Source: Escherichia phage vB_EcoM_ASO2A
Sequence record: MZ726793.1
Length of the DNA: 64,000 bases
Reading direction: 5' to 3' (one strand)
Shown here: in pieces, positions 3,577 through 63,326 of the stretch
How the letters are laid out: every line of letters begins with the position of its first letter
Numbering within the stretch: the stretch's first letter is position 1
Made by a program: the position numbers and the translations under genes
The notes under the pieces: generated by a model
Databases searched by the model: none
The model's input: the letters and a program-made list of their open reading frames with translations, nothing else
Told to the model about the DNA's origin: nothing

Positions 3577-3966
3577 ATGCGCAACCTGGTTTCTGTTTCT
3601 AACGTTGAAAAATTTCAATCTTTACAGGGTATCGTTAACAACGTAGCGCCTTTTTTAGTCAACGGCTTGATTGCAAAGATGAAAAATAAACATCATGCGG
3701 CATGGTCTGCTTACTGCTTTGATAATGATGAAAAAGCGGCTGAAATGATGCTAAATATGCTGTTAGACAGTGTAGAATCATCTTTACCGGAAAACATCGC
3801 AGAAGAGATCACCTATCGTTATAATATGGCGATCACTTACCAGGAGGTTGCGCAATTTAATATGATGGACGATGACGAACAACAGGATCAGGAAATGTTT
3901 TGGGAGTATGCTGATCGTCAATCGGCTTTTGATGAAAAATTAGCGATGTATTATAACGAATATTAA
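3577..3966 (+). CDS. hypothetical protein
   Basis: 129 aa from ATG 3577 downstream of the hairpin. Confidence 0.55.
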   Translation: MRNLVSVSNVEKFQSLQGIVNNVAPFLVNGLIAKMKNKHHAAWSAYCFDNDEKAAEMMLNMLLDSVESSLPENIAEEITYRYNMAITYQEVAQFNMMDDDEQQDQEMFWEYADRQSAFDEKLAMYYNEY

Positions 3967-10847: not shown

Positions 10848-11038
10848 TGTTTAGTTTCTTGGTGATTGTTATGGTTGTTCTTTTCGCGGCATGGCTTTGG
10901 GATTTTGACCCAGGAGCAGCGCAGCAAAGAGCTACAGACTGGAAAGAACAATGTATTGTGCTCAAACATGAACGAAATGCGGAGAAATTTCTTGACCTGG
11001 AGTGTGATCGCCTTGTAAGATACAAGCAAGATAAATAA
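10838..11038 (+). CDS. small membrane protein
   Basis: 66 aa from ATG 10838; SD AGGAGG; one TM helix. Confidence 0.5.
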   Translation: MPIVFSFLVIVMVVLFAAWLWDFDPGAAQQRATDWKEQCIVLKHERNAEKFLDLECDRLVRYKQDK

Positions 11039-11052
11039 CCTTGAGGTGCAAA

Positions 11053-11241
11053 ATGGTAATTGAGATTAAACTTGAATATGCTGGGGCTGTTGCCCTGATC
11101 GCACAAATGTTGGGAGCAAAGATTGAAGAAGTGTGTATCAATGCCTGGAGTGTAGAGATTAATGTTCCTATGGATAACATTGCTAATCGCTTGCTGGTAG
11201 CAGAGTGTGAACGCACCAACATAATCTACAAAGGAGCATAA
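11053..11241 (+). CDS. hypothetical protein
   Basis: 62 aa; SD GAGGTG. Confidence 0.5.
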   Translation: MVIEIKLEYAGAVALIAQMLGAKIEEVCINAWSVEINVPMDNIANRLLVAECERTNIIYKGA

Positions 11242-11242
11242 T

Positions 11243-11464
11243 ATGAAAATTAGAGTTTGTGATGTATTGGGTTATGTTGGTTTTGAGAATGTTCAGATTC
11301 CTTTTGTTGTTGAAGCACATCTTGTTAGCGATGACATGACAACATTCTTTGTTACGATAGAAGAAATGTCCAAAGTTGAGGGATGGGAGTGGTTTGAAGA
11401 AGATGTTTGGGAAGGTTGTGATTACGTATTTTTCTCTGACGAAGTGAATATTCTTGCGGAGTAG
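11243..11464 (+). CDS. hypothetical protein, paralog family B
   Basis: 73 aa; SD AAAGGAG; C-terminal motif shared with 7305..7526. Confidence 0.55.
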   Translation: MKIRVCDVLGYVGFENVQIPFVVEAHLVSDDMTTFFVTIEEMSKVEGWEWFEEDVWEGCDYVFFSDEVNILAE

Positions 11465-11466
11465 GT

Positions 11467-11673
11467 ATGTCTTGTTTTACAAAAGCAGTGTCCATATGTA
11501 AGAAACAATATGAAAGTGATTACGGAATATTTAATATTCCAGTAGATCATACAGAGTATTGTTCATGTGGTGGCAGAATGAAGAAAACAGTGATTTATGC
11601 GGATAATGGAGATGAACTTGTTCCGGTTGTGGTTTGCAAAGCTTGTCATTCTGTTAAAACATTAAAAGCGTAA
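11467..11673 (+). CDS. putative zinc-ribbon protein
   Basis: 68 aa with CSCGG...CKAC cysteine pairs. Confidence 0.5.
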   Translation: MSCFTKAVSICKKQYESDYGIFNIPVDHTEYCSCGGRMKKTVIYADNGDELVPVVVCKACHSVKTLKA

Positions 11674-11768
11674 GGAGTCGGGACACCCGACGATTGGAGC
11701 TAAAAATTTTGCGTACAACCCTTTCCGCCCAACAGGGGCGCGTCGGGTAAGTAAAGAGGAGAGTTTAT

Positions 11769-12167
11769 ATGAAAAAGATCATCGTAGGTTTCTTGTTACT
11801 CATTGCATCACTTGGAACAGCAAATGCGTCTCAAGTTTATGAGTGTGTGTCAGATGTGGTTGTTAAAAATCTGAAAGGTGAAGTGATTTCTGGTCCTAAG
11901 AAAATGGCTTCTGTTGTCATTAATAAAGATAACTCCTTTATCCTTAAAAATTCAGGTGGTGCTTTGATGAGTGGCATTCTGCAATACACAGGAGAAAAAA
12001 GTAAAGATGGTAGTGCTATGTATGGTTCACAACAGTTTATTGGCACTACTGAAGTTGTGATGATGCGCACAGAGTATCGAGACACTTTAGCTTGGTTTGC
12101 ATTTCTAAAAAATGATAAAACAATAACGAATGTTCTTACTCTAGAAGCTGATTGTACGCAACGATAA
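11769..12167 (+). CDS. secreted protein with signal peptide
   Basis: 132 aa; N-terminal MKKIIVGFLLLIASLGTANA; SD AGAGGAG. Confidence 0.6.
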   Translation: MKKIIVGFLLLIASLGTANASQVYECVSDVVVKNLKGEVISGPKKMASVVINKDNSFILKNSGGALMSGILQYTGEKSKDGSAMYGSQQFIGTTEVVMMRTEYRDTLAWFAFLKNDKTITNVLTLEADCTQR

Positions 12168-60661: not shown

Positions 60662-60910
60662 ATGTCTCTATTAGAAAAACACGTGTTTGAAGATGGTAAC
60701 GGCAATGCAGTTTTTCTTTTCCATCCAGAAAAATACACATCTGAAAACAATGGTACAACTTCTATTGTAATCACTAAAGATGTTAAAGTTATTGATTTCT
60801 TGGCTCTGATGCGAGAGATGGATCTTGAAATTAATACTTTTAACGCAGAAGCTTTGGTTGTTGCTCTTCTGGAAAAGAAAGATAGTGAAGAAGTAGCAGA
60901 ATATGCTTAA
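60662..60910 (+). CDS. hypothetical protein
   Basis: 82 aa from ATG 60662; SD AGGAGG. Confidence 0.5.
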   Translation: MSLLEKHVFEDGNGNAVFLFHPEKYTSENNGTTSIVITKDVKVIDFLALMREMDLEINTFNAEALVVALLEKKDSEEVAEYA

Positions 60911-60917
60911 ATAACTA

Positions 60918-60947
60918 TTGACAAACGTATCCTTCATATGTTAGGAT
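60918..60947 (+). promoter_or_regulatory. sigma70-like promoter (conserved ACTATTGACAA box)
   Basis: AACTATTGACAA recurs at 61501 and 62471; -10-like TTAGGAT. Confidence 0.5.
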
Positions 60948-60961
60948 ACGTTCATCAAGTG

Positions 60962-61148
60962 TGGTAACAGGGTCGTTGACTTTTGTTAAGAGGGGCTTGC
61001 ACTGCGGTAGTGTTAGAGACTACTTCTTCAGAGGTTAGCTACCAAAGAGGAAAAGGAATAGTCTCGGCTCAAGAACTTTTACGCTGAAAGTTGGGCTTGG
61101 TCTTAGAGAATGTAGCGGTTCTCTACAATCGTCAGCGTCTCTGTTACC
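60962..61148 (+). ncRNA. Candidate structured small RNA upstream of the tRNAs
   Basis: 187 nt closed by GGTAACAG...CTGTTACC with nested stems (GAGACTA..TAGTCTC; TAGAGAA..TTCTCTA); no ORF. Confidence 0.3.
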
Positions 61149-61156
61149 ACATTTAT

Positions 61157-61231
61157 GGCCCTGTAGCTCAATGGGAGAGCTGTCGGCTCATAACCGATAG
61201 GTAGCTGGATCGAAACCAGCCAGGGCCACCA
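61157..61231 (+). tRNA. tRNA-Met (anticodon CAT)
   Basis: Manual cloverleaf: acceptor GGCCCTG/CAGGGCC, D-stem GCTC/GAGC, loop CTCATAA, T-arm GCTGG/CCAGC, encoded CCA. Confidence 0.8.
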
Positions 61232-61233
61232 AC

Positions 61234-61308
61234 GTCTTTATGGTGTAATGGATAGCACAGGAGTCTTCTAAACTCTTAGTCAAGGTTCGATTCCTTGTAA
61301 AGACACCA
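61234..61308 (+). tRNA. tRNA-Arg (anticodon TCT)
   Basis: Acceptor GTCTTTA/TAAAGAC, loop CTTCTAA, T-arm CAAGG-TTCGATT-CCTTG, CCA. Confidence 0.8.
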
Positions 61309-61503
61309 GAACATTTTAACATGAATTAGCTCAAGTGATTTGAACCCACTACTGATCATGGTGGCAGAGAATGAGGCAAGTATGTCAGACATTATAAACA
61401 AAGGCCACGGTTATATTAGAAGACATAAATGCTCGAAGAGCACCGTTCGTGGAGAACGGGGTTGGTGGAGTCACCATTCATGGTAAAATGTTTTAAAAAA
61501 CTA

Positions 61504-61533
61504 TTGACAACTAACATTATTTTATGTTAGATT
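61504..61533 (+). promoter_or_regulatory. sigma70-like promoter (ACTATTGACAA box) for tRNA transcription
   Basis: TTGACA, 17 nt, TTAGATT; tRNA-Ser begins about 9 nt downstream. Confidence 0.5.
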
Positions 61534-61541
61534 ATAAGTAT

Positions 61542-61632
61542 GGAAGGGCAAATCGACGTGGCGACGAAAACGGTCTTGAAAACCGCCGAGCTTGAAAGAG
61601 CCTTGGGAGTTCGACTCTCCCTCCTTCCGCCA
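61542..61632 (+). tRNA. tRNA-Ser (anticodon TGA), long variable arm
   Basis: Acceptor GGAAGGG/TCCTTCC, loop CTTGAAA, T-arm GGGAG-TTCGACT-CTCCC, CCA; D-arm atypical. Confidence 0.7.
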
Positions 61633-61637
61633 GATTA

Positions 61638-61723
61638 GGTAGATTGGTGAAATGGTAGCCACGACAGTTTGCTAAACTGTAGTCGGAAACGGCGTGTAGG
61701 TTCGAGTCCTACATCTACCGCCA
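61638..61723 (+). tRNA. tRNA-Ser (anticodon GCT), long variable arm
   Basis: Acceptor GGTAGAT/ATCTACC, arm ACAGT-TTGCTAA-ACTGT, 15-nt variable arm, CCA. Confidence 0.8.
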
Positions 61724-61853
61724 AGTTCTTTTTAATATAGCTTACTTTAGCAGAGTAAATCTTCGGCAAGTGGCGGTAACCACTTTACCGATAACTCATA
61801 GTTAGTGGTGTGAACACTGGCTATTTTAAAAAGAATTTAAATATTAGTATTTA

Positions 61854-61941
61854 GGTGAGTTAATTCCGTAGGGGTAGCGGGGCAGACTGTAAATCTGTTA
61901 TCATTGCGATTCGGGTGGTTCGACTCCATCACTCACCACCA
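61854..61941 (+). tRNA. tRNA-Tyr (anticodon GTA), long variable arm
   Basis: Acceptor GGTGAGT/ACTCACC, GCAGA-CTGTAAA-TCTGT as in E. coli tRNA-Tyr, CCA. Confidence 0.8.
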
Positions 61942-61947
61942 AATTAA

Positions 61948-62033
61948 GATGAGTTGGCTGAATGGTTTAAGCGGCGGACTGTTAATCCGTGTTCGAAAGA
62001 ACGATATAGGTTCAAATCCTATACTCATCGCCA
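61948..62033 (+). tRNA. tRNA with anticodon GTT (Asn by position) and an atypical long variable arm
   Basis: Acceptor GATGAGT/ACTCATC, arm GCGGA-CTGTTAA-TCCGT, 15-nt variable arm (GTTC-GAAA-GAAC), CCA. Confidence 0.5.
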
Positions 62034-62040
62034 GAATTAT

Positions 62041-62117
62041 GGACTTGTAGAGTTAAGGTAAACCCCCAGTCGCCAAGAGGCTTCTGGAATTGCAGGTATC
62101 GAATCCTGCCGAGTCCC
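62041..62117 (+). ncRNA. tRNA-like element (degenerate, no canonical anticodon arm)
   Basis: Acceptor-like GGACTTG/CGAGTCC and T-arm-like GCAGG-TATCGAAT-CCTGC (8-nt loop); no 5-7-5 anticodon arm; no CCA. Confidence 0.2.
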
Positions 62118-62123
62118 AGCTTT

Positions 62124-62198
62124 GCTCCTATAGTATAATGGCTATTACAACGGTTTTGTAATCCGTGGATCTCTGTTCGATTCAGAGTGGGAGCACCA
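62124..62198 (+). tRNA. tRNA-Thr (anticodon TGT)
   Basis: Acceptor GCTCCTA/TGGGAGC, loop TTTGTAA, T-arm CTCTG-TTCGATT-CAGAG, CCA. Confidence 0.75.
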
Positions 62199-62473
62199 AC
62201 ACAACATTAAGGGCACTGTGATTGATCGTCGTATCCTGTGCACAAGGTCTGTTCGAAAGACAGTGTTCTTAGTATTGTGTTGATCACACAAAAAGAGTTA
62301 CCTGAAACTTGACCGGAGTAGGGTTGGATGGGGCAAAAGAAGAAGCGGCTCTCCCATCGACAGCAACGAAGAATAATATTTGACTTTGGTTTTGTATTAT
62401 TTTAAGTTAGCTTACCGAACGTAGGGCTAGTCACCCAACGGGATACTCGTCACTGTCCCACTCAATAAAACTA

Positions 62474-62503
62474 TTGACAACCAATAGTAAAATGTAGTAT
62501 AGT
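62474..62503 (+). promoter_or_regulatory. sigma70-like promoter (ACTATTGACAA box) upstream of tRNA-Gly
   Basis: TTGACA, 18 nt, TATAGT; then GTAGGGCG and tRNA-Gly. Confidence 0.5.
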
Positions 62504-62514
62504 AAAGATGTAGG

Positions 62515-62588
62515 GCGTTCTTGGTGTAGCGGTAGCATTCCGTCCTTCCAAGTCGGCGGCACGAGTTCGATCCTCGTAGAACGCTCCA
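62515..62588 (+). tRNA. tRNA-Gly (anticodon TCC)
   Basis: Acceptor GCGTTCT/AGAACGC, loop CTTCCAA (stem has one U-U mismatch), T-arm ACGAG-TTCGATC-CTCGT, CCA. Confidence 0.65.
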
Positions 62589-62686
62589 AATTATTTAATA
62601 AAGGGTTGCCAGAAAACTTTCTCTTTTACTCATGGTTTTCTCCTTCTCTCACACCTCTTCTGGTTGCCCTTCATTAAATGATTTAT

Positions 62687-62762
62687 TGGTTTGTAGTGTA
62701 GTCCGGTAGCACACGACACTTTGACTGTCGTAGGTTTGGTTCAAATCCAGACAGACCAGCCA
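62687..62762 (+). tRNA. tRNA-Gln (anticodon TTG)
   Basis: Starts with U like E. coli tRNA-Gln; acceptor TGGTTTG/CAGACCA, arm CGACA-CTTTGAC-TGTCG, CCA. Confidence 0.75.
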
Positions 62763-62855
62763 TATAACAAAGGTGAGTCACTACCTCAAGTGTGAAGTTA
62801 AAAACGAGGAGCCGCCGAACACTTTCTTTTGCGGTGTACCTTTAGAATGTTATGA

Positions 62856-62932
62856 CGGAATTTAGCTCAGTTTGGTAGAGTGTACGCTTTGGGAGCGTAT
62901 TGTCGCAGGTTCGAATCCTGCAATTCCGACCA
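62856..62932 (+). tRNA. tRNA-Pro (anticodon TGG)
   Basis: Starts with C like E. coli tRNA-Pro; acceptor CGGAATT/AATTCCG, arm TACGC-TTTGGGA-GCGTA, T-arm GCAGG-TTCGAAT-CCTGC, CCA. Confidence 0.8.
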
Positions 62933-62938
62933 ATTAAA

Positions 62939-63012
62939 TGTTTCGTAGTTCAATGGTAGAACCCACGACTGATAATCGTGAGATACAAGTTCGATTCTTG
63001 TCGAAACAACCA
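62939..63012 (+). tRNA. tRNA-Ile (anticodon GAT)
   Basis: Acceptor TGTTTCG/CGAAACA, D-stem GTTC/GAAC, arm CACGA-CTGATAA-TCGTG, CCA. Confidence 0.75.
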
Positions 63013-63014
63013 GT

Positions 63015-63084
63015 TTCCCGTTAGACTTACAGGATAAGAGTTCCACAATTTATTGTGACGCTGGTTCGAATCCAGCACGGGATA
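63015..63084 (+). ncRNA. tRNA-like element with aberrant anticodon arm (possible pseudo-tRNA)
   Basis: Canonical T-arm GCTGG-TTCGAAT-CCAGC and 6-bp acceptor, but the anticodon region folds as CACAA-TTTA-TTGTG; no CCA. Confidence 0.25.
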
Positions 63085-63090
63085 CATAAT

Positions 63091-63169
63091 AGCGGGATAG
63101 AGGAGTCTGGTCGTCCTCGCCAGTTTCATATGCTGGAGATCATTGGTTCAAATCCAATTCCCGCCTCCA
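63091..63169 (+). tRNA. tRNA with anticodon CAT (Met, or Ile2 if modified)
   Basis: Acceptor AGCGGGA/TCCCGCC (1:72 mismatch), 11-nt D-loop, arm CCAGT-TTCATAT-GCTGG, CCA. Confidence 0.7.
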
Positions 63170-63285
63170 AATATCGCTTGCCAGCGGTATCTTTGAAGAC
63201 CTTGCCTGGTTCCTTCTAAGATGGAGGGGTGCGACTCCTTAACGCACAATTATAATAAAGCATTTCAAATTAACAGTATTTATTA

Positions 63286-63308
63286 GCCTCCTTATTGGAG
63301 GCTTTTTG
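63286..63308 (+). terminator. Rho-independent terminator after the tRNA cluster
   Basis: GCCTCC-TTATT-GGAGGC followed by TTTTT. Confidence 0.65.
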
Positions 63309-63326
63309 CTATCTATTGAATAAAAC

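Follow-up and report, generated by a model that had tools for sequence, protein, structure and literature searches.

A probable structured non-coding RNA gene within the tRNA clusters of phAPEC8-type and related myoviruses

The window analysed here, a 64,000-nt stretch of Escherichia phage vB_EcoM_ASO2A (MZ726793.1), belongs to a phAPEC8-like Phapecoctavirus (Stephanstirmvirinae). Its tRNA region (60900-63320) is 100% identical to that of Escherichia phage MRostami-2023b and 97-99.8% identical to those of many phAPEC8-type phages. ARAGORN and Rfam place 11 tRNAs between 61157 and 63169, every one on the + strand, and the cluster holds three near-consensus sigma-70 promoters, at 60918-60947, 61504-61533 and 62474-62503. 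The last two each abut a tRNA, leaving a leader of a few bases at most. The first stands ahead of 60954-61156, which is probably the gene for a structured non-coding RNA of about 200 nt in phAPEC8-, phi1_175008/Tr1- and PVP-SE1-type myoviruses. Homologues of this element fall into three clades: E. coli Phapecoctavirus (clade A), Klebsiella and Citrobacter Stephanstirmvirinae (clade B), and the PVP-SE1/Mydovirus/FBKp34 group (clade C). The features of the locus in the window are as follows.

60918..60947, + strand: sigma-70-type promoter, TTGACA (60918-60923), 18-nt spacer, TG-extended TAGGAT (60942-60947)
60954..61156, + strand: predicted mature RNA of ~203 nt, bounded by the inferred start site and by the last base ahead of tRNA-Met
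60957..60986, + strand: P1 5' strand, pairs with 61125-61154 (16 + 7 + 4 pairs)
60985..60991, + strand: junction motif GUUAAGA, three-clade consensus UUAARA
60992..60997, + strand: P2 5' strand, pairs with 61099-61104 and closes the four-way junction
60999..61013, + strand: P3 hairpin GCACUG-CGG-UAGUGU, base GCAY...RUGU conserved in every clade
61016..61065, + strand: long arm P4-P5-P6, covarying stems that differ in length and sequence between clades
61035..61041, + strand: apical loop UUAGCUA, 7 nt, with the palindromic hexamer UAGCUA at 61036-61041
61066..61097, + strand: P7-P8 arm, conserved GGNNC-AAG bulge and GC-containing loop
61105..61124, + strand: P9 hairpin between P2 and P1, loop GUAGCG (GGCA/GGCG in clades B and C)
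61125..61154, + strand: P1 3' strand, ends 2 nt before the tRNA-Met 5' end
61157..61231, + strand: tRNA-Met(CAU), the first tRNA, immediately 3' of the element

The original prediction had placed a candidate structured small RNA downstream of the promoter at 60918-60947. This promoter is confirmed: it shows 10 of 12 hexamer matches together with the TG extension, and it is kept in all clade-A relatives, with both hexamers intact in the 80%-identical phiWec-type phages. Transcription is predicted, from the -10 spacing only, to start at about A60954, which would give a 3-nt 5' tail before P1.

Several other features of the cluster deserve description. tRNA-like genes overlooked by ARAGORN lie at 61542-61628, 61854-61938, 62041-62120 and 63013-63087; among them are a long-arm tRNA-Ser(UGA)-like gene matched by the Rfam tRNA-Sec model at 37 bits, two cloverleaf-like pseudo-tRNAs with aberrant anticodon arms, and one tRNA (Tyr in relatives) detected by Rfam only. 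The segment 63170-63250, 3' of the last tRNA-Met, is kept in all relatives examined, phi92 included, and carries the T-arm-like sequence GGAGGGGUGCGACUCC; it could represent a tRNA, degenerate or unusual, or a further RNA of the cluster, and a terminator follows at 63285-63303. The tRNA-Gly/tRNA-Gln spacer (62589-62686) has a terminal helix of ~26 bp (z -5.6) around a C/U-rich loop of ~45 nt that contains the anti-Shine-Dalgarno-like UCUCCUUCUCUC, and it is conserved in clade A and weakly similar in Tr1. End helices likewise close the spacers 61309-61500, 61724-61853 and 62763-62855, with z-scores of -4.3, -3.3 and -0.03 (the last not significant), and the spacer 61724-61853 has sequence homologues out to phi92 and clade-B contigs.

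A second possible element had been proposed at 62199-62460. As a whole this stretch is not significantly structured (z -1.05), but its 3' part contains a conserved core of ~48 nt.

62415..62461, + strand: second-element core CCGAACGUAGGGCUAGUCACCCAACGGGAUACUCGUCACUGUCCCAC, two hairpins with GUCAC in both loops, a separate candidate RNA

The core is nearly invariant in ten diverged Stephanstirmvirinae-type loci, and a hairpin upstream of it (~62325-62358) covaries; no Rfam match was found for this second element. Its 3' part, located between tRNA-Thr and the tRNA-Gly promoter, occurs in nearly all relatives and is thus distributed more widely than the main element. In phi92, a CDS (gp112) is annotated at the syntenic position.

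The minimum free energy (MFE) of 60958-61152 is -74.8 kcal/mol, compared with -52.3 +/- 3.9 kcal/mol in dinucleotide shuffles (n=200), giving z = -5.72 with none of the 200 shuffles as good, while the opposite strand reaches only -53.7 kcal/mol. G.U pairs make up 15 of the 74 pairs in the fold, so that the structure is one of the + strand, as RNA or as a single strand, and it is on this strand that the promoter and the tRNAs lie. The segment had been described as closed by an 8-bp helix. That helix exists, with CTGTTACC at 61141-61148 as claimed, but its partner GGTAACAG occupies 60963-60970, shifted rightwards by one base from the proposed place, and the 8 bp are only the core of a helix of about 30 rungs, in which 16 contiguous pairs (60957-60972 with 61139-61154) are followed by 7 and then 4 pairs across small internal loops. 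All homologues share one architecture, composed of this ~30-rung closing helix, a three-way junction (P1/P2/P9), a four-way junction (P2/P3/P4-6/P7-8) and four hairpins.

In clade A, the segment is found in 70 GenBank phage records, 66 of them at ≥99% identity, and an RNA is annotated in none. Copies of ~80% identity come from phages phiWec179, 186, 188 and 190, a record labelled 'Pseudomonas phage PsgM04F', three Logan contigs and one contig each of IMG/VR and a metagenome; a metagenome scan gave two copies, both of clade A. In these diverged members the flanking tRNAs are ~97% identical, while substitutions in the element concentrate in the inner stems and are compensatory. We mapped the MFE structure of the window onto 11 distinct clade-A sequences and used as control the same structure with its 3' partners slid by 1-3 columns. 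Paired cells amounted to 96.6% against 39-45% in the slid controls, 12 of 74 pairs changed on both sides against 0-2, and the covariation score was 0.175 against 0.02-0.05. RNAalifold returned the same structure from these sequences save for one junction helix. Among the variants of the element, the first pair of P2 varies between G.U, C-G and U-A, and the inner pairs of P3 covary (C-G/U-A and U-A/C-G/A-U). Some near-identical Phapecoctavirus genomes are deposited under unexpected names ('Campylobacter phage B15/C3/A150', 'Acinetobacter phage vB_AbaM_ABPW7', 'Pseudomonas phage PsgM04F', 'Klebsiella phage ZCKP1', 'Dompiswa phage'), which likely reflects host mislabelling or contamination.

For all remote searches we used a covariance model, R1, built from clade A only and run with filters off on tRNA clusters that were found via a conserved neighbouring protein. 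Full-length matches on the tRNA strand were obtained in clade B from five metagenomic contigs (41-55 bits), Klebsiella phage phi1_175008 (50.6 bits) and Citrobacter phage Tr1 (34.9 bits), and blastn added the Klebsiella phages FKP3, KP2025 and KP13-26. The most distant copy, from Klebsiella phage FBKp34, scored 31.9 bits and represents clade C; blastn links it to, among others, Salmonella phage PVP-SE1 (Seunavirus) and Klebsiella phage K54lambda1.1.1 (Mydovirus), both Vequintavirinae. Because the reverse strand of clade A itself reaches ~34 bits under R1, and Tr1 and FBKp34 score no higher, the weakest matches are unconvincing on score alone. They become convincing through their context and strand in a tRNA cluster, the motifs UUAARA, UGCAY...RUGU and GGNNC-AAG at matching structural positions across the clades, the blastn links that connect weak homologues to stronger members, and their own folds, since they fold unaided into the shared architecture (z -4.6 for clade C).

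Independently of the model, MAFFT and RNAalifold on nine clade-B sequences recovered P1, P2, P3, P4, P7, P8 and P9, with 21 of 60 pairs covarying. In an alignment of clades A and B that was fitted to R1, and hence is not independent of it, 92.7% of cells were paired and 39 of 74 pairs changed on both sides, compared with 6-10 when the partners were slid. The sequence of P1 is invariant within clade A and wholly different in clades B and C, but its pairing and its length of ~30 rungs are kept; in the model-fitted alignment both sides changed in 13 of its 25 pairs, and between clades A and B the same holds for 6 of the 7 pairs of P8. A MAFFT alignment of all three clades brings the motifs into register but not P1, and the counts are therefore given per clade or from the model-fitted alignment. 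The candidate structured RNA of the original prediction is thus borne out, and the structural conservation in relatives on which it had been made to depend extends over three clades and two phage subfamilies, with compensatory substitutions maintaining the fold down to ~50-60% identity. We are highly confident that this is a real, selected and strand-specific RNA structure that forms a new family. Under R1, phi92 and several phi92-like contigs have no copy, and the element is therefore dispensable; the model found no further copies in the 64-kb window, no copies turned up in phages outside clades A-C, and a blastn search of 5,426 E. coli genomes for a host origin was negative.

Every homologue lies within a tRNA cluster and on the tRNA strand, but the immediate neighbours differ. 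The expected position between a promoter and the first tRNA holds for clade A only, where a promoter stands directly ahead of the element; elsewhere the RNA sits between tRNAs. In clade B, it begins 0-8 nt 3' of the CCA of tRNA-Cys, and the next tRNA, with a CUA anticodon, follows 330-500 nt further on (in Tr1, a ribosome-binding site comes directly after the element). In clade C, it begins 2-3 nt 3' of a tRNA CCA end, and in FBKp34 and K54lambda it stops a few bases before the next tRNA. The ends of the element thus coincide with tRNA ends or with a transcription start, which fits release by tRNA-processing enzymes. Moreover, two promoters inside the cluster lack such a leader and some copies are flanked by tRNAs, and the element is therefore a module rather than a required leader.

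The CUA-anticodon (amber suppressor) tRNA found a few hundred bases 3' of the element in clade-B relatives, which ARAGORN and GenBank call 'tRNA-Pyl' or 'tRNA-Sup-CTA', is lacking in the phage of the window. HNH/NUMOD4 homing-endonuclease genes occur in or beside the tRNA clusters of relatives, and FBKp34 additionally carries a gene for an IS200/IS605 'transposase accessory protein', located ~1.9 kb upstream of the element; such insertions mark these tRNA clusters as hot spots for mobile elements. The positions, in the numbering of the respective loci, are given below.

L051:1066-1140, L053:4149-4223, L057:4375-4449, L060:2195-2269 and others: CUA-anticodon tRNAs of clade-B loci
L049:2668-3174; L061:2733-3196; L189:1752-2345 and 11022-12146: mobile insertions in relatives

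RNase P cleavage at tRNA 5' ends is an established step of tRNA processing, and it suggests how the RNA may be released. In the window, host RNA polymerase would start from the promoter at 60918-60947 and transcribe the element at the head of a polycistronic tRNA precursor; RNase P would cut at 61156/61157, the 5' end of tRNA-Met, and so generate the 3' terminus of the RNA. In clades B and C, 3' processing of the upstream tRNA would define its 5' end. Because P1 locks both ends, a stable species is expected to build up, and the excised RNA would work in trans and not as a cis leader. By analogy with known tRNA maturation, we think it probable, with moderate confidence, that the element yields such an excised, stable, trans-acting RNA. 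This suggests that tRNA processing releases a non-tRNA RNA here, in the manner of 'tRNA punctuation'.

A candidate interaction site is found at the tip of the long arm. In every clade its loop of 7-8 nt holds a palindromic hexamer of the form U-NNNN-A, namely UAGCUA in clade A, UGAUCA in clade B and UCGCGA in clade C; with the closing bases, the loops read G[UUAGCUA]C, A[CUGAUCA]U and U[AUCGCGAG]A. UUAGCUA is invariant in all clade-A variants, CUGAUCA is found in 10 of 10 clade-B copies and AUCGCGAG in 3 of 3 clade-C copies. Within a clade the stem beneath the loop covaries while the loop stays fixed, as illustrated by the clade-B stems GAGAAUA/UAUUCUC, GAACAUA/UAUGUUC, AACGUA/UACGUU and GACUAC/GUAGU(U). 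UAGCUA is the sole palindromic hexamer in the 203 nt of the window's element, and the apical loops are predicted to be unpaired. Since self-complementarity survives two complete replacements of the central tetranucleotide and the adjacent bases cannot pair with one another within a chain, the pattern points to pairing between two copies of the RNA. A precedent for the pattern is loop L9.3 of OLE RNA, which switches among the palindromes GGCC, GAUC and AGCU and which the cryo-EM study of OLE, ROOL and GOLLD read, by this very reasoning, as a symmetric kissing loop between two identical chains (PMC12286853).

In our proposal, two copies would join via the palindromic hexamer (UAGCUA here) into a symmetric kissing-loop homodimer, which could form the core of a larger RNA-only or RNA-protein assembly. 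We put forward this self-association tentatively, with the odds leaning somewhat against it: the reading depends on two independent loop switches, each with a chance of roughly 1/16, about 3 palindromic hexamers per 200 nt would be expected by chance, and the 6-bp A/U-rich kissing helix is weak, at about -5 kcal/mol as a duplex. In clade A, the apical loop is also complementary to the P9 loop over 5-8 bp, and in phiWec179 this pairing dominates the predicted ensemble; a P6-P9 kissing loop within one molecule (GCUAC:GUAGC) is conserved in clade A but missing from clades B and C, and we retain it as a clade-specific alternative only. Complementarity between the P8 and P9 loops (CGCU:AGCG, UUGC:GCAA, CGC:GCG) includes one compensatory change and spans just 3-4 bp, so that a P8-P9 contact is a weak lead. 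In a bolder reading, which we consider less likely than not, the RNA would form a compact RNA-only homo-oligomer, a dimer or a larger scaffold, held by the kissing loop and possibly by P8-P9, whose target during infection would be the machinery of translation or of the tRNAs, or else host defence. In clade B, the loop sequence CUGAUCAU recurs in the P1 3' strand of most copies (e.g. L057:4012-4019, 3924-3932), which could be chance or an alternative pairing. Codon-like pairing or anticodon-loop mimicry involving the phage tRNA-Ser(GCU), tRNA-Asp or tRNA-Ile was rejected, because any hexamer contains several codons. Taken as a whole, the best explanation in our view is a structured RNA gene whose product would be released by tRNA processing and might pair with itself as a kissing-loop homodimer, an explanation to which we assign a probability of roughly 0.55.

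The same loop can be read without any RNA-RNA pairing, if the RNA is excised and a dimeric protein of the host or the phage docks on the palindromic loop together with the conserved P3 and junction motifs. The RNA might then, for instance, be the decoy or sponge of an RNA-binding enzyme, of a factor that recognises anticodon loops or of a defence nuclease. The 7-nt loops UUAGCUA and CUGAUCA (Y-U-NNN-N-A) do resemble an anticodon loop at positions 32, 33 and 38, the element always lies among tRNAs, and the single-stranded UUAARA and the sequence-conserved P3 stem look like recognition elements. However, a pyrimidine occupies position 37 and the loop of clade C is 8 nt long, which makes for poor tRNA mimicry. 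In addition, the four central bases are replaced in each clade with self-complementarity kept, whereas a protein site would normally conserve sequence, and no gene for a partner protein adjoins the element in all clades. We consider this reading unlikely.

Alternatively, the element might act in cis on the tRNA precursor, with P1 as an entry site for RNase III or another enzyme or as a protective 5' structure, organising the maturation or expression of the adjacent tRNAs and having no function in trans. This would suit a P1 duplex of at least two turns in every clade and the terminal helices that likewise close other spacers of the cluster, and T4 species 1 RNA is reportedly a substrate of RNase III in vitro. 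It leaves unexplained, however, the four-way junction, the invariant loops and the covarying palindrome. The position also varies, from before the first tRNA here to after tRNA-Cys in clade B with 330-500 nt to the next tRNA; the two other promoters of the cluster have no leader, and phi92 matures a similar cluster without the element. There is neither an rrn-type boxA nor a terminator-like tail, and a boxA antitermination leader was rejected because GCUCUUUAACAA is unmatched in 60954-61156 at ≤3 mismatches. A cis role of this kind is quite unlikely.

It is very improbable that the element is functionless debris, either of decayed tRNA genes or of a selfish insertion with terminal inverted repeats. 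The cluster does contain tRNA-like pseudogenes (61542-61628, 62041-62120, 63013-63087), many spacers have terminal inverted repeats, and phi92 lacks the element, but it has no T-loop or D-loop motifs and no tRNA-model match, compensatory changes preserve its pairing across two phage subfamilies, and other copies are missing from the 64-kb window, the E. coli genomes and phages beyond clades A-C. Scarcely credible, finally, are small proteins, for which 'hypothetical protein' CDSs placed over the element in the WPEC4, ETEC-TG, EP57, FKP3 and K54lambda records might speak, or a DNA-level site such as an origin or recombination site, given that, as the original prediction of a non-coding segment had it, stops occur in all three forward frames (longest open stretch 39 codons), no frame, start or ORF is conserved between clades, the helix substitutions are compensatory and without codon periodicity, and the 15 G.U pairs make the fold strand-specific, against a cruciform in double-stranded DNA. 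Roles like those of a retron, omega-RNA or bridge RNA are unlikely as well, since the gene lists examined show no adjacent reverse-transcriptase, TnpB/IscB or IS110 gene.

The family is of only ~200 nt and occurs in easily grown, genetically tractable phages of E. coli, Klebsiella and Salmonella, several of which feature in therapy studies, and its candidate interaction site is simple and mutable, so that the question is directly testable. A conserved RNA gene has also been left unannotated, or masked by spurious CDSs, in about 90 GenBank phage genomes. At the level of titles and abstracts, the literature offered no transcriptome or small-RNA data for these phages and, mostly at that same level, no description of the RNA. 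A large catalogue of structured phage RNAs, compiled computationally, covers motifs of 29-151 nt and asks for at least 3 IMG/VR matches (PMC10690425). Our pattern scans of IMG/VR found a single copy, so the catalogue probably missed the element: the pattern GGTTAGCTACCAAAGA gave 21 matches, all by chance, GTAACAGGGTCGTTGAC gave 11 with one true, and the degenerate motif GTTAARA..GCAY..RTGTKAG gave at least 120 chance matches.

The covariance search against RNA families that had been proposed as a check was run with Rfam 15 and returned nothing for the segment, not even with permissive filters and a threshold of E≤10, nor did a clade-B copy match Rfam. This includes the self-cleaving ribozymes (hammerhead, twister, twister-sister, hairpin, pistol, hatchet and HDV-like; no match at E≤10) and the tRNA/tmRNA clan (CL00001), as no ARAGORN or Rfam tRNA-model call overlaps 60954-61156. 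In its long helix of the 5' and 3' ends around a structured module, its expected stability and its size, the element resembles YrlA (RF02553) and 6S RNA. Unlike YrlA, it lacks a tRNA-like T arm, and it differs from 6S RNA in having a four-way junction at its centre and no 6S-type bubble. The YrlA models (RF02553/RF00019) gave no match overlapping the element, the sole YrlA match being a chance one of 21 bits at 62901-62962 over tRNAs (gathering score 69), and the 6S RNA model gave none over it.

An analogue of the small stable RNAs of T4 had been suggested, and this holds by position, as a structured non-tRNA RNA in a phage tRNA cluster, but not by homology. Like T4 rnaC and rnaD (species 1 and 2), the element is a non-tRNA RNA that is co-oriented within a tRNA cluster and adjoins tRNA ends. 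The T4 RNAs, however, have 139 and 119 nt as against ~203 nt here and lie at the 3' end of their cluster; rnaC has a tRNA-like T arm, GGGUUCGAAUCCC, which the present element lacks, rnaD is not significantly structured (z -0.8), and the folds of both differ from that of the element. R1 matched nothing in the T4 tRNA region, rnaC and rnaD included, with filters on or off.

For the palindromic loop, there is a likeness to OLE L9.3, where palindromic loops also switch; here the switch is among AGCU, GAUC and CGCG between U and A. OLE, in contrast, is an RNA of ~600 nt from extremophilic Firmicutes that works with proteins, and its sequence and fold are unrelated. In the HIV-1 dimerisation initiation site, a self-complementary 6-nt loop drives RNA-RNA association. 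The likeness is that of a short self-complementary hairpin loop, while the molecules, functions and contexts are unrelated. The loops of phi29 pRNA are complementary between molecules, not self-complementary, and build a ring on the packaging motor. Both the HIV-1 site and the phi29 pRNA loops have been cited as precedents for loop-loop association (PMC12286853).

ROOL and GOLLD share the genomic niche, being phage and prophage RNAs 'often near tRNA islands', and in their cryo-EM nanocages quaternary structure arises from kissing loops, some of them by symmetric self-pairing (PMC12286853). They are 3-4 times larger (about 600-800+ nt) and of unrelated fold, any oligomerisation of the present RNA being inferred only, and the ROOL and GOLLD models of Rfam gave no match to the element at the gathering score or at E≤10. 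To our knowledge, the RNAs of phage tRNA islands are still without known function, T4 species 1 and 2 after about 50 years and ROOL and GOLLD since 2010-2017. If the homo-oligomer reading is true, the element would possibly be the smallest natural RNA-only homo-oligomer described, with a fold unrelated to those of ROOL and GOLLD. The element represents a new RNA family that shares its genomic niche with T4 rnaC/rnaD, ROOL and GOLLD.
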